Below are positions 21,989 through 50,850 of a stretch of 62,843 bases of DNA, in pieces. The first letter of the stretch is position 1; every line of letters begins with the position of its first letter. The position numbers and the translations under genes are program-made. Below the pieces are notes generated by a model. The model was not told the origin of the DNA, ran no database searches, and saw nothing but the letters and a program-made list of their open reading frames with translations. Origin of the DNA: a virus (Duplodnaviria > Heunggongvirae > Uroviricota > Caudoviricetes); IMG/VR virus record IMGVR_UViG_3300021963_000042, positions 64,001 through 126,843 of that record, one strand, 5' to 3'.

Positions 21989-22426
21989 ATGGCAGAAGAA
22001 GAAGTAAAAGTAGAACCGAAAAAAGACGAAGACTGGATGCAGAAGAAGTGGCGTCCAGCTATGGGCTGGATGTACATGGTTGTTTGTTTCTGTGACATGG
22101 TTCTATTCCCAGTAGCTTGGAGTATTCTACAAGCTGTACTGAAGCAACCAGTAACACAATGGAATCCATTAACTTTACAGGGTGCTGGATTATTCCACCT
22201 TGCAATGGGTGCTGTTCTGGGTATCGCTGCATGGGGTCGCACTCAAGAGAAAGTTGCTGGCGCTGCAAGTAACGCTCCAGTACCAGGAACACCACCTGCT
22301 CCAATGGCACCTACCACGACAGCAATAAATACAACACCAGCACCAGTTCCTCCACGTCCATTACCAACAAGAATGGACAACGATACTGCTGGTGACCCAC
22401 CAACACGAAACACTCGAAACGATTAA
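21989..22426 (+). CDS. Putative holin (GTA 3-TM holin-like)
   Basis: WMQKKWRPAMGWMYMVVC..DMVLFP...GAGLFHLAMGAVLGIAAWGRTQEK; hydrophobic segments plus Pro-rich tail. Confidence 0.6.
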   Translation: MAEEEVKVEPKKDEDWMQKKWRPAMGWMYMVVCFCDMVLFPVAWSILQAVLKQPVTQWNPLTLQGAGLFHLAMGAVLGIAAWGRTQEKVAGAASNAPVPGTPPAPMAPTTTAINTTPAPVPPRPLPTRMDNDTAGDPPTRNTRND

Positions 22427-22427
22427 G

Positions 22428-22847
22428 ATGAAAATTGATGATAGATTATCAGAAGTCTTTGATGTTCCTACTATAACTAAGACCGAAGGTGAAGTGATAG
22501 ATGCGTCTACTGGCGAGATTATTCAAAAACCAGTAGAAAAAATCGAAGATGATTATGACAGAACACGAAATAACTTACACGAGTTACTTGTGAAAGGGCA
22601 GGAAGCTCTGAATCATGCACTAGAAGTTGCAAAACAATCAGAGCATCCTCGTGCGTTTGAGGTAGTTGGAAATTTGATGAAGCAGTTAGCTGACGTGAAT
22701 CAGCAATTGATGGACATTCATCAACAGAAAGCCAAACTTGATGGTCCAGGAAAAGCGGACAAGCAAGTTACAAATAATAACGCTATCTTTGTTGGTAGCA
22801 CAGCTGAGTTGAATAAACTTATTAAAAATATGACTAAAGGAGATTGA
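22428..22847 (+). CDS. gp16: Terminase small subunit gp16-like
   Basis: DYDRTRNNL..L..KG.EAL..AL.VA..SEHPRAFEV...L; NNAIFVGSTAEL. Confidence 0.65.
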   Translation: MKIDDRLSEVFDVPTITKTEGEVIDASTGEIIQKPVEKIEDDYDRTRNNLHELLVKGQEALNHALEVAKQSEHPRAFEVVGNLMKQLADVNQQLMDIHQQKAKLDGPGKADKQVTNNNAIFVGSTAELNKLIKNMTKGD

Positions 22848-22848
22848 T

Positions 22849-23568
22849 GTGGCTTTACCTGTGAATACATCACCAGTATATTCGATGGTTATTCCATCTA
22901 CTGGACAAGAAGTGAAATTTAGACCATTCCTAGTGAAAGACGAGAAAGCTCTGTTGATTGCTCAACAAAGCGAAGACCCAGAAGTAATGGCAGAGACATT
23001 AAAAAATGTTATCAGTTCTTGCATCACGACGCAAATTGATGTTGACAAATTAGCAACATTCGATTTGGAATACATCTTTACGCAAATGCGTGCAAAGTCT
23101 GTAGGTGAAAATGTGGATCTGATGTTCCCATGCGATATCTGCCCAACGGACGATGAGAAAGCTCGTGTTAAAATTAGTTTTGATCTAACTAAAATCAAAG
23201 TCGAGAAAGACGCAGATCATACGAATAAAATTCATCTATTCAATGACGTTGGTGTGGTGATGAAGTACCCAACTATCCAATCAATGAATAGATTTAAAGA
23301 ACTTAACGCTGACAATCTAGACGACTTATTCAAACTTATCGCAGAGTGTGTTGATTACATTTATGATGGCGATGAGATTCACTATGCAAAAGAACAAGCA
23401 TTCAATGACGTTCTTGAGTTTATGAACAACCTGACTTCTGATCAATTCAAGAGTGTTCAAAAATTCTTTGAGACTATGCCGAAATTAAAACAAAATGTGC
23501 AGTACACTTGCCCAGTTTGTCAACATCAACACAATAAAACTCTGGAGGGACTCCAAAGTTTTTTTTAG
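22849..23568 (+). CDS. gp26: Baseplate hub assembly protein gp26
   Basis: LP....P.Y...IPSTGQEVKFRPFLVKDEKALLIA, LATFDLEYIF..MRAKSVGE, FFETMPKL...CPVC..LEGLQSFF. Confidence 0.88.
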   Translation: MALPVNTSPVYSMVIPSTGQEVKFRPFLVKDEKALLIAQQSEDPEVMAETLKNVISSCITTQIDVDKLATFDLEYIFTQMRAKSVGENVDLMFPCDICPTDDEKARVKISFDLTKIKVEKDADHTNKIHLFNDVGVVMKYPTIQSMNRFKELNADNLDDLFKLIAECVDYIYDGDEIHYAKEQAFNDVLEFMNNLTSDQFKSVQKFFETMPKLKQNVQYTCPVCQHQHNKTLEGLQSFF

Positions 23569-25906: not shown

Positions 25907-26824
25907 TTAATCTTCTTTAGCAATCTTCTCGAAGTATGACATGACATCTTCGTCATCGTCATCCATCTTACTTACTGCTGGCGCTGGTGCAGGTTTAGAA
26001 GGCATCTTAGGTGCAGCAGCAACAGGACGATCTTCTTCTTCAGCAATCTCAGCAGCAGACTTGCTGGCAAAAGAATCACCAGACAATACTTGCTCAAGTT
26101 TCTGCTTCAACTCATCATAAGACTTGAAGTTCTTACGATCCAAGAACTCAGAAAGTTTGTGTTGAGCATTCGCAACACGCAAGATTTCTTCTTCATCACC
26201 ATTAGCGATAGGAGAAGGATCACCGAATGCAGACTCATCATAATTGGTGTAACCATCTTTCTTACGCATACGCAGTTTGAAGTTAGCACCTTCCCAGAAG
26301 TCAAACACGTTGACTGGCTTTTCATCTTCAAAAGTAGGACGTGCTTTGTCCATAATCTTATCAAAGATTTTCTTACCAAACTTAAACAAGAATACCTTGC
26401 CTTCGTTCTCTGGATGTTTTGGGTCAGACACAACAAGAATGTTGGCAGTGAAACTTAGCTTACGCTTTTGTTTACGTGCAATTTCTTTGTTGGCTTCAGA
26501 ACCACTGTTCCACAACTTAGTATTCAACTCACCAACAGGATCGTTTTCACCAAGAGTAGTCAAAGAGTTTTCAATATACCACTTACCAGTAGGTCCTTGA
26601 AAACCATGAGAGAAGATACGAACCCAAGGTAGTTCGTCGCCTTCAACACGTGGGAGGAATCGAATCGTAGCAGTGCCGTTGCCTGCCTTGTCGCCTTCTA
26701 GTTTCCAAAAGCGAGTGTCATTGTATGACTTAGATTCTGATTGGGGATTTGCGATCTTATCAAATTCTCCAGCGATTTTGCCGAAGTCTTGATTGCGCAT
26801 TTTACGGAGTGTTTGAATGTCCAT
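25907..26824 (-). CDS. gp32: Single-stranded DNA-binding protein gp32
   Basis: DTRFWKL..DKAGNG.A.IRFLP...LPWVRIFSHGFQGPTGKWYIENSLTTL; FDFWEGANFKL; acidic C-terminus. Confidence 0.95.
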   Translation of the reverse strand: MDIQTLRKMRNQDFGKIAGEFDKIANPQSESKSYNDTRFWKLEGDKAGNGTATIRFLPRVEGDELPWVRIFSHGFQGPTGKWYIENSLTTLGENDPVGELNTKLWNSGSEANKEIARKQKRKLSFTANILVVSDPKHPENEGKVFLFKFGKKIFDKIMDKARPTFEDEKPVNVFDFWEGANFKLRMRKKDGYTNYDESAFGDPSPIANGDEEEILRVANAQHKLSEFLDRKNFKSYDELKQKLEQVLSGDSFASKSAAEIAEEEDRPVAAAPKMPSKPAPAPAVSKMDDDDEDVMSYFEKIAKED

Positions 26825-41256: not shown

Positions 41257-41880
41257 TTATACTCCTGAAGCCAACACAATCTTACATATATGCTCAAGTC
41301 GTTCAATATGCTCATAAGCACGCCATGGCGAGGTATCAATAGCCACTACTCCGTGTCCTTTAATTCCAACAATATCGTACGCAATATTACCGTGTTCATC
41401 TAGTTCTAGATTTCTAAAGCAACTATCTGCCAATTCCTGAGAGATAGGCGGAACATCACCAACATTGGGTGCTACCCGAGTATAACGATTTAGTTCTGGG
41501 AACGCATCACTAATGGTTGAGAGATCGATGCCCCGATGCATTGCTGCAATACAGTAAGTGGGGTGAACATGAACCACCACTCGAACATCATTACTATGTT
41601 GCCCCATGTTTCTCTGTAGACCAAAGTGTAAGGGGATCTCTCCGCTGGGCTTTAGATTCTTACTGATGTCAGTATATGGTAAGTCCAACCAATTGTCATT
41701 GACCTTGGAAAATGCAATCTTTTTAAACTGATCGGGTTGTAGAGTCTGCTTACGCACACCACTGGGTGTGATATAAAAGTGATCTCGATCGTGGTGACGA
41801 ATACTTACGTTACCATCACGAGAGGTGATCCAGTTACGCTTGTATGCATCTTCCAGCACTTCACAAATAGTTTCTAACAT
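41257..41880 (-). CDS. Class II aldolase/adducin family protein
   Basis: DGNVSIR, FYITPSG..K, PSGEIPLH, VVVHVHPTY, GHGVVA, EHIERLEH. Confidence 0.88.
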   Translation of the reverse strand: MLETICEVLEDAYKRNWITSRDGNVSIRHHDRDHFYITPSGVRKQTLQPDQFKKIAFSKVNDNWLDLPYTDISKNLKPSGEIPLHFGLQRNMGQHSNDVRVVVHVHPTYCIAAMHRGIDLSTISDAFPELNRYTRVAPNVGDVPPISQELADSCFRNLELDEHGNIAYDIVGIKGHGVVAIDTSPWRAYEHIERLEHICKIVLASGV

Positions 41881-42753: not shown

Positions 42754-42802
42754 AGTAATTTCCCCCTATACAACTAAAACGTCTGAGGAGTCCCTACAGT
42801 TG

Positions 42803-42907
42803 TCACTTAAAACAATTATACACGAAAAACCCAATAAAGGCAAATTCCAGGAGTCCCGCTACAACCATTACTGCAATGTTCTGCCAAGTCCAATCAGTGT
42901 AAATCAT
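42803..42907 (-). CDS. Micro membrane protein (34 aa)
   Basis: MIYTDWTWQNIAVMVVAGLLEFAFIGFFVYNCFK*. Confidence 0.5.
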   Translation of the reverse strand: MIYTDWTWQNIAVMVVAGLLEFAFIGFFVYNCFK

Positions 42908-42919
42908 AGCGGAGTCCCG

Positions 42920-43018
42920 TTAAACCACCAATAAAAACAGTAAAAATGCCAGAATAGGATGACCAGTCATTATTAGGAATAATGCCACAATACACCCAAA
43001 GAATGCTCGATCATCCAT
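42920..43018 (-). CDS. Micro membrane protein (32 aa)
   Basis: MDDRAFFGCIVALFLIMTGHPILAFLLFLLVV*. Confidence 0.5.
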   Translation of the reverse strand: MDDRAFFGCIVALFLIMTGHPILAFLLFLLVV

Positions 43019-43027
43019 AGGAGTCCC

Positions 43028-43183
43028 TTACTTAAATGATGCCATCCACTCTAAAAGAATAGCCTTAGCTTCTTGTCGAGAAAGACTGAAAGATTGCTGC
43101 AGGTAAGGCGATGCGCCAAACATGTTGGTTACGCCAGAGTCCCGAAGGGCATTTAGAAATTGAAAATAAACTTGCTTATTCAT
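43028..43183 (-). CDS. Small conserved phage protein (51 aa)
   Basis: MNKQVYFQFLNALRDSGVTNMFGASPYLQQSFSLSRQEAKAILLEWMASFK*; LRDSG.TNMFGA.PYL motif. Confidence 0.7.
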   Translation of the reverse strand: MNKQVYFQFLNALRDSGVTNMFGASPYLQQSFSLSRQEAKAILLEWMASFK

Positions 43184-43380
43184 GATAGGAGTCCCTTAAA
43201 AAGATGTTAGTGAGAAAAACGGAGTCCCGTGGTGAAACGGAGTCCCTTAAATGCGGACGGAGTCCCTTAGTTTAAATGATGATGGTGGTTTATAAGTCTG
43301 AGCCATACAGGCGAAAAGGGGACCCATGAATTTTAGTCACGTTTTAGAACCCCTACCCCCTAGTCACACTTGGCTCATAC

Positions 43381-43808: not shown

Positions 43809-43859
43809 TGTTCACTCTCTCTATACAGGGGTAGTGGAGGAGACCCCCCCCCTTAGGGT

Positions 43860-44798
43860 TTAGGCTGTAAGCATGTAGGTGGCGAGGTCTTTCCAGTCGC
43901 TGTTAGAAGCACGAACCTTGGATACAGAGATCAGGGTACGCAGAGACAGTTCTTTGCAGTCATCCTTGATTTCACGAATCAGAGCCAGTGCATCTGCAAT
44001 AATAGCCTTGTCATACTCAGGCATGAATTCAGGTGAATTTGCAATAGTCTCCATACGGTCGATTTTCTGATCCGTATTCATGGACAGGTCGATCATCATA
44101 GAACGACTACGAATGGCTTGGTCAATACGACCCTCATCCATGTTAGAGATGAAAATCACACGACCTTCGAAGTTGAACGAACGAGGCAGATCGTCGTCAC
44201 GCATATCAGCATTCCAGCTAATGATACGCTTACCGTAGCTGTCCAGAGCACCCTTCAACAGATTGAGGGCAACTGGGTCACGCAACACAGCGTCGCAGTC
44301 ATCGAACACCACGATGGATTTGTTGTTTTCGAACAGAGTACGGTACAGACCCTTAGCCGTAGAGAAACCCTTCACCATGGTGAAACACTTGCTCTTACGG
44401 ACAACAGTGCCGACTTGAAAGTCAGCCAGATCAGAGATGTCGGTATAGCCGTTGTTTTCCAAGGTTTTGGTCACAGTGTAAGTCTTACCCAGACCACCAG
44501 CACCAGTGATGACGGCAGAGGGCTGAACACCAGCAGCAACCATGGAAACCAACTTTTCCACGAACGAGAAACGCTGATTGATATTGAATTTCTCAGACTT
44601 GCTAGGCTCGATGGCAGCAGCAGAGCCCATGATCTTAGCGAAGTCAACTTTCTTACCAGTCAACTTCTTGTAGTGGAATTCAACGACTTCCTCAAGACCA
44701 CGACCAGACTTGCCAGTGGTCACTTTCTTGTCACCAAACATGATGACAGACTTACCAGAGACTTTGTCAGTATCGATCGTGATTTTCAGTTCGTTCAT
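43860..44798 (-). CDS. AAA+/P-loop NTPase-like early protein
   Basis: Walker A GAGGLGKT, Walker B IVVFDDCD, LLKGALD, VIFISN, AIRSRS (Arg finger). Confidence 0.8.
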   Translation of the reverse strand: MNELKITIDTDKVSGKSVIMFGDKKVTTGKSGRGLEEVVEFHYKKLTGKKVDFAKIMGSAAAIEPSKSEKFNINQRFSFVEKLVSMVAAGVQPSAVITGAGGLGKTYTVTKTLENNGYTDISDLADFQVGTVVRKSKCFTMVKGFSTAKGLYRTLFENNKSIVVFDDCDAVLRDPVALNLLKGALDSYGKRIISWNADMRDDDLPRSFNFEGRVIFISNMDEGRIDQAIRSRSMMIDLSMNTDQKIDRMETIANSPEFMPEYDKAIIADALALIREIKDDCKELSLRTLISVSKVRASNSDWKDLATYMLTA

Positions 44799-45806: not shown

Positions 45807-46003
45807 CTCAGATCTGGTTCTTTCTCATAGCAGCTAAGACACACGGCATCATACCTTGGTCCACTATTAGGACTGATCGCTCCATTGCAGTACTTACAGA
45901 GAATAAACGCATGGGTTACGATAGATCCTTTTGGAGCACTGTACATTGGATAGAAACCTTCTTCTCTCTCTGTATAGCCTATAAGAGTTCTTTCTGTAAT
46001 CAT
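45803..46003 (-). CDS. Hypothetical protein (CxxC...CxxC)
   Basis: LCKYC...AVCLSC. Confidence 0.55.
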   Translation of the reverse strand: MITERTLIGYTEREEGFYPMYSAPKGSIVTHAFILCKYCNGAISPNSGPRYDAVCLSCYEKEPDLR

Positions 46004-46374
46004 CTTGTTGCCTTTGCTCTTGCCTCAATCATTGATTCCATCTCACCCTTGATAACTACATTGGTATAGGTATCTTGCAAACCACTCGCATGGTCTGTCA
46101 CTCGATTGTCTGGCTCATGGTATGTTCGAATACGTTCTGTACCTGCCAGGAATCGTTCCTTGTCCTTTGTAAATTTTGCAACCACACGGGACAGGCAGGT
46201 AACATAGGCGACTTTCTTATTATCCTCACGACTACGACTGGTCTGACCAGTGGCTATGATTCCAGTTGGCTCATGGATACAACGGCAGCAGTTCTGGTGT
46301 TTGTTGCGATGTTGACCACCTCCACCAGTTCCACTGAACCATTCATATCTAAATTGATCTTCGGTTACTTTCAT
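46000..46374 (-). CDS. Peptide chain release factor-like GGQ protein (RF-1 catalytic domain only)
   Basis: SGTGGGGQHRNK..N..R..H.PTGI......RSR..N; RIRTY...RVTDH; 124 aa. Confidence 0.85.
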   Translation of the reverse strand: MKVTEDQFRYEWFSGTGGGGQHRNKHQNCCRCIHEPTGIIATGQTSRSREDNKKVAYVTCLSRVVAKFTKDKERFLAGTERIRTYHEPDNRVTDHASGLQDTYTNVVIKGEMESMIEARAKATR

Positions 46375-50770: not shown

Positions 50771-50850
50771 ATTATACTCCAAACCTGAATTATTGTAAAG
50801 CCCCTTGTGAAAAACCCTACAAAAAGTAGGGTTATCGTAAGTCATTGATT
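50771..50850 (-). promoter_or_regulatory. Early promoter cassette: TTTACA-17-TATAAT + hairpin + IHF-like box (34 bp identical to the 30265 copy)
   Basis: -10 at 50771-76, -35 at 50794-99, 8-bp stem 50813-33, AATCAATGACTTA at 50838-50. Confidence 0.78.

Follow-up and report, generated by a model that had tools for sequence, protein, structure and literature searches.

The window analysed here comprises 62,843 nucleotides (positions 64,001 to 126,843) of the viral record IMGVR_UViG_3300021963_000042. With its baseplate genes, gp32, gp59 and PhoH, the record represents a T4-like phage, and its gp23 capsid protein is 66% identical to those of HTVC008M and Melnitz. The genes at the locus lie on the minus strand, which is also the strand of all the features described next. 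Furthest upstream is the gene of an AAA ATPase (43860..44798; phrog_1250), a homologue of T4 NrdC.10 with 30% identity. The original prediction placed it 600 bp upstream; it is indeed upstream, the distance from the gene end to the core being ~540 bp. A motif-like run of eight G with TCTCC (43836-43851) directly follows the ATPase stop codon and varies in length between runs, and similar G-runs stand behind the ATPase gene in several relatives. At 46000-46374 of the window lies a small gene with an RF-1 peptide-release-factor domain.

The best-conserved part of the locus is the core GGGTCCCCT (43325-43317), which we call site 1, together with a G-run GGGGGTAGGGG (43360-43350) ~25 bp before it that is found in about half of the relatives; both were overlooked in the original prediction, and the core lies just outside its eight repeat copies. 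The core follows the consensus GGG[A/T]C[T/C]CCT, and with its upstream flank (43333-43319) 15 bp are identical to cyanophage S-RSM4. A degenerate AAACCCC-type C-run (43284..43292) stands ~35 bp after the core and roughly mirrors the G-run, which gives G-run, core and C-run a roughly dyad arrangement. Site 2, which reads GGGACTCC, is situated 59 bp after site 1 (43259..43266) and is followed by copy 3 (43239..43246, +79) and copy 4 (43221..43228, +97); these three copies are non-coding and spaced by 18 and 20 bp, as had been claimed. Copy 5 (43188..43195, +130) lies 4 nt before the ATG of a 51-aa gene (43028..43183) and may double as its ribosome-binding site. The 51-aa gene belongs to a widespread phage family with weak matches to DUF5049 and phrog_8677 and is an interchangeable neighbour; a 7/8 copy within its codons (43136..43143) is absent from 14 homologues. 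Copy 6 (43020..43027) separates the 51-aa and 32-aa genes and copy 7 (42911..42918) the 32-aa and 34-aa genes, copy 8 (42850..42857) lies within the 34-aa membrane micro-ORF, and the last one, copy 9 (42787..42794, +531), is intergenic. Three copies do stand close before an ATG, with gaps of 4, 1 and 3 nt rather than 2-4 nt. Two had been described as directly following a micro-ORF stop codon, of which one abuts it and the other is 1 nt away.

All eight exact copies of the octamer were found again at their predicted positions and in one orientation, reading GGGACTCC on the minus, coding strand. The window holds nine matches against 0.57 expected, a number that none of 100 shuffled sequences reached. 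The octamer had been thought to have no further exact copy in the window, but a ninth match is located at 23547 on the plus strand, in frame within the last codons of the gp26 baseplate-hub gene, and is taken as a chance coding match. A count over the entire 126,843-bp record confirmed that the octamer is not common genome-wide and that the array is its sole cluster. Since contigs from three runs cross the array, one of them from a diverged strain (X3) of an independent study, it is not an assembly artefact. In strain X3, the segment 41047-41901 with a 207-aa gene (41257-41880) and its neighbour is swapped for 365 other letters. The repeat unit itself is short, with an 8-bp core, at most 13-17 bp of partial identity between copies and irregular spacing.

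A search with the ATPase yielded 77 loci, which together with the window came to 59 distinct ones. Taking the first GGGACTCC or GGGTCCC behind the ATPase as search word, the core was found behind the same ATPase gene in 37 of the 59, and the motif is thus not absent from orthologous loci. In these 37 loci, positions 8-9 of the consensus are invariant, the final T being outside the search word, and the core is conserved while the flanking genes are reshuffled. A variant core in the same frame and between the same flanks occurs in three additional loci, and in two others the core is just beyond the fetched flank. In a subclade (L027, L030 and L031), GGGAGTCTC replaces the core ~3.1-3.4 kb behind the ATPase with the G-run and A-tract box intact, and a further metagenomic family (L342, L351, L376 and L381) has the same core and C-run and a different A/T box. 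Complete relatives contain the motif at this single locus only; two complete relatives are without the exact core. A G-rich run near −27 and a C-run near +35 of the core recur in relatives. The distance between site 1 and site 2 is 56-61 bp in four relatives and 74-164 bp in the other array-bearing ones. Extra copies are all downstream of the core and on the same strand (49 vs 0, which is partly due to construction of the search) and thin out over 0.5-1.6 kb through whatever genes occur there. Relatives differ in the genes that stand behind the core, and where homologues of the window's micro-genes occur elsewhere, array-bearing relatives included, the motif does not flank them. The placement of the copies therefore goes with their distance from the core and not with gene identity.

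Most loci share a second feature at +76 to +280, a box in which two A-tracts enclose a short C/G core. The box is absent from all eight loci with at least three copies and present in 27 of the 29 with fewer (Fisher p 1e-6, uncorrected), while the array state has changed at least four times on the ATPase tree. The swap between A-tract box and spreading array is a clear example of how one DNA feature takes the place of another.

When the A-tract box was used as query, a weak match to Syn1 and S-RIM44 was obtained, and inspection revealed the entire element: GGGACTCCT, GGGTCCC 57 bp on and then an A-tract box. The element is also found, unannotated, in S-PM2, Syn9, S-CAM1, S-H9-2, the ACG-2014 groups and in part in P-SSM2. 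S-RSM4 carries it as well. It is positioned at the end of the small-gene block before gp25, at 62.08 kb in Syn1 and 25.12 kb in S-PM2, and its sites are 57-58 bp apart in Syn1, S-PM2 and S-H9-2. In S-PM2 (L210:8000-11500) and in L206:1-3500, the 3.5 kb upstream of the element are C-rich with 50-60% GC, and the GC content is 36-39% exactly from the element onwards. Searches of HTVC008M, Mosig and Melnitz did not reveal the element; motif-like matches in HTVC008M and Mosig are in coding DNA. The ATPase family is absent from five cyanophages carrying the element, and T4 has the ATPase homologue and no GGGACTCC cluster. The ATPase, suggested earlier as a partner of the array, is thus a neighbour and not an obligate partner; it is a syntenic marker in this clade that is not required for the element.

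Other phages contain similar arrays. When sets of three closely spaced copies of GGGACTCC were searched for, 119 loci were obtained, 58 of them with the non-triplet spacing typical of non-coding DNA, compared with 3 of 118 for the reversed octamer as control. From these viral records, 49 with non-coding arrays were chosen by eye. The large terminase gene terL is present in 33 of them, with the array 0.3-10 kb upstream of it in 32 and on the same strand in 28 of the 33; the control octamer gave terL in 10 of 45 records and a repeat so placed in 3 of 45 (our own count). This contrast is inflated, because one family accounts for about 26 of the 32 terL-adjacent records, the choice was made by eye and the control repeats are coding. 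At least five terL types with mutual identities of 20-30% or less adjoin arrays, and L143 has its array between a TerS-like gene and terL. Few terminases occur in the two ORFs nearest to the arrays, since several other genes usually stand between array and terL. Genomes of the main terL-linked family measure ~112 kb and encode a gp17-like terminase with 31% identity to that of our phage, and their arrays follow the geometry of this window, namely GGGTCCC or GGGACTCC, the next site at ~+55 and then steps of ~19 bp. No match to the arrays of the 112-kb family was found in any cultured phage. In L099 (2515-3567), five 23-bp repeats containing GGGACTCC lie within a 350-aa rep-like gene, like lambda O iterons.

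We propose that array and core are part of the single terminase-recognition (pac-like) locus of the phage, a candidate assignment to which we give a probability of about 0.55 on comparative sequence grounds. This reading is favoured by the uniqueness and conservation of the element, the geometry of its sites, the mutual exclusion of box and array and the linkage to terL in other families. The predicted binding partner is a gp16-type small terminase, whose gene (terS, 22392..22847, plus strand) matches solved gp16-type terminases. It is situated ~20 kb from the array among baseplate genes. Some 40 kb separate it from gp17, which stands immediately behind a gp15-like gene; the corresponding T4 genes 16 and 17 adjoin each other. 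The gp17 gene occupies record positions 45.9-46.6 kb, and the element is 61 kb from terL.

A small-terminase ring of the gp16 type might bind or wrap the element at the core and site 2. Bending would be provided by the intrinsic A-tract box in most relatives and by extra sites in boxless lineages such as this genome, where the added sites would have been written into gaps and codons after loss of the box. The large terminase of the gp17 type would then introduce the first cut close to the element, probably on its upstream side and not at a precise position, and headful packaging from this cut would over-represent the DNA beside the element in virions.

Published data on cyanophage virions concern the same neighbourhood. 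A 2-3-fold read density downstream of the ORFanage in S-PM2 was read as terminal redundancy (Puxty et al., PMC4503421), and double coverage of virion DNA, cause unknown, was reported at 10.5-12 kb in S-PM2d and at 137.8-139 kb in S-RSM4 (Rihtman et al., PMC4893331). The element is at 15.58 kb in S-PM2d (LN828717) and at 136.72 kb in S-RSM4, which places the over-covered regions on the same, upstream side in both phages, at 3.6-5.1 kb and 1.1-2.3 kb respectively, without abutting it. The likeness is thus one of neighbourhood, 1-5 kb upstream of the element; the two reports give no shared sequence or repeat within these regions, and the element beside them is not described there (PMC4503421, PMC4893331). 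A pac phage shows higher coverage next to the place of its first cut (PMC5557969). As both libraries are NexteraXT, a transposase method that loses true ends, and the S-RSM4 region is also GC-rich, library bias is possible, and we regard the published double coverage as supporting, not decisive, for packaging.

Contig depth is flat across the locus in the contigs of four runs, which are assemblies and not raw reads. A pattern scan of metagenomes, mostly unspecific, gave no sharp pile-up of contig ends, and one stretch starts 6 nt before the core. Of the 49 records, 19 have a contig end within 1.1 kb on the upstream side of the array and 4 on the downstream side, with 3.9 expected, an excess that is weak because hypervariable upstream DNA also breaks assemblies. 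The records of S-H9-2 and S-H9-1 begin 1.7 and 2.8 kb, respectively, before the element, which is a weak indication, the S-H9-2 start not being a mapped end; no mapped end was found in the literature on cyanophage termini.

Compared with known packaging sites, the element occurs once per genome and has oriented direct repeats (here) or potentially bendable A-tract DNA (the box of the few-copy relatives), whereas a position in or beside the terminase genes is seen in the 32 of 49 other motif-bearing records and not in this genome. The closest precedent for repeats with bent DNA is the pac site of SPP1 and SF6, which comprises pacL, pacC and pacR with boxes A, B and C and combines direct repeats with bent DNA that the small terminase is proposed to select (PMC4737164). 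The element resembles it in being a unique locus of 100-500 bp with short repeats in the same orientation and A/T-tract DNA that may bend. It differs in position, as the SPP1 site overlaps the promoter and start of terS and in T4-like genomes neither terS nor terL is near the element, and in conservation, as SPP1 boxA is not kept even in SF6 and the motif of our candidate site is common to several families. With the gene-16/gene-19 pac of T4 it shares a GC-rich target proposed for a gp16-type small terminase, and subunits of the gp16 and gp17 types are encoded in this phage; the T4 site is at the 3′ end of gene 16 (PMC10893049), T4 is without a GGGACTCC cluster, and here the GC-rich site is not in the 3′ end of terS. 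The terS gene (22392-22847) contains no motif. The distances of ~20 kb to terS and 61 kb to terL, unlike SPP1 or the T4 gene-16 pac, argue against packaging, as do the negative searches for the element in HTVC008M, Mosig and Melnitz, the iteron-like array in the rep-like gene of L099, and the classification of T4-like phages as headful without a pac site (PMC5557969). Because the element is far from both terminase genes in this genome and the cut is a prediction, we call it pac-like on present evidence and do not file it as SPP1 or T4 gene-16 type.

The main rival is a replication origin, for which the GC skew that flips at the element in cyanophages speaks, but which we consider unlikely, as there is no flip here and no linked initiator. 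Early transcripts would enter the G-run and core and form an R-loop primer, for which T4 oriE and oriF offer a comparison, and the copies would act as iterons for a phage initiator or helicase loader. Consistent with this, there is one locus per genome with G-run and A-tracts, the negative skew switches sign at the element to become positive in Syn1, S-PM2, Syn9 and P-SSM2 and rises downstream of it in 31 of 34 relatives, and the 23-bp array of L099 is within a rep-like gene. However, no skew inversion occurs in the window, and the negative skew of the cyanophages covers only a few kb of early genes. Iteron origins such as T4 oriE, lambda O and those of plasmids have repeats in the same orientation next to AT-rich DNA at a single locus, and the element likewise shows repeats at ~19-bp steps beside AT-rich DNA. 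Unlike these origins, its copies have only 8-9 bp in common, lack the regular 17-22 bp repeats, become irregularly spaced beyond the first ones and fade through genes. There is no adjacent replication gene or initiator, the ATPase is dispensable, the G-run is missing in about half of the loci, and an origin would leave the terL adjacency in other families unexplained. The original prediction of a DNA site for a phage protein is supported in its broad form, although the comparative evidence favours packaging over a replication origin.

Binding of a phage transcription regulator to the array, or a switch between early and late transcription, is a still less probable explanation. The structural operon of the terL-linked family has the array at its head, often with TATA(T)AA-like words behind it, and in cyanophages the element marks the end of the GC-rich early block, with a near match to the T4 late promoter after site 2. 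In the window, however, no late promoter is near the element, and the closest consensus sigma70 promoters lie 1.5 kb away on the upstream and 3.3 kb on the downstream side. The copies extend into coding DNA of unrelated genes, and early genes face the element in cyanophages and point away from it in the 112-kb family. For a regulator, sites at several operons would be expected.

It seems improbable to us that the element is another type of DNA landmark, such as a concatemer-resolution site or a signal for injection stop or end protection at the border of the early region that is injected first. Such a role would fit the sharp composition boundary at the element in cyanophages and the 112-kb family and the roughly dyad order of G-run, core and C-run, but early promoters are present on both sides of the element in this genome, and neither a recombinase nor another dedicated partner gene co-occurs with it. 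Three identical 29-bp early promoters of the sigma70 type were noted, at 50799-50771 and 30296-30268 of the window (minus strand) and at record position 25,999, together with many near copies on the minus strand. In contigs of three runs, position 50800 is joined to 44877, which indicates that the promoter module is repeated in a PeSL-like manner.

It is very unlikely that the element acts at the RNA level, as ribosome-binding site, translational operator or nuclease site of the micro-genes. Three copies here and 12 of 51 in relatives are 1-4 nt before an ATG, 17 of the 51 follow a stop triplet, and the AAGGGA part resembles a Shine-Dalgarno sequence. On the other hand, 35 of the 51 downstream copies in relatives are at least 12 nt from an ATG, homologous genes elsewhere do without the motif, and it is missing from hundreds of other genes of the genome. 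Neither a conserved fold at the element (mean z −0.5) nor an Rfam match was detected, and pairing of G-run and C-run as an RNA stem was rejected. With one locus per genome and most copies far from an ATG, the RNA role proposed earlier is not supported.

Least probable of all are crossover sites of a micro-gene cassette array with integron- or PeSL-like shuffling: although the gene set behind the core varies and several copies are at gene junctions, two copies are inside genes, micro-gene homologues elsewhere are not bounded by the motif, which speaks against the earlier suggestion, most relatives have a single core and yet equally variable genes, and no joint at the motif is among those listed in four runs. 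PeSLs of T4-like phages are many and dispersed and carry a sigma70 promoter and hairpins (PMC4122927). The element shares with them a non-coding location among small genes of hypervariable early regions; unlike PeSLs, it is single and its copies are without promoter or stem-loop, the repeated early promoters being separate in this genome.

In conclusion, we describe a deeply conserved and apparently undescribed cis-element, whatever its role; its description was not found in the open-access literature, where the octamer appeared only in primers. We tentatively suggest, at somewhat less than even odds, that Kyanoviridae, a large freshwater T4-like clade and several families with distant terminases share one ancient, sequence-recognisable packaging signal consisting of GGG[A/T]C[T/C]CC sites ~57 bp apart and an A-tract box or replacement array. 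The usual view is that T4-like phages start packaging at random points, and the double coverage in cyanophages was left unexplained in two papers. If our hypothesis is true, these T4-like phages would have a preferred genome end beside early, hypervariable genes instead of random ends, and in uncultured phages the sequence alone would suffice to call the packaging site, so that genomes could be opened at their true start. A pac function would predict the genes that are first to enter the host and that virions carry in duplicate, would offer a reason for the fast gain and loss of genes in these regions and could provide a cis-element for transduction tools in cyanophages, which lack genetics. 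As the element measures ~100 bp and is present in easily grown, cultured cyanophages, the question of where packaging starts becomes directly testable.
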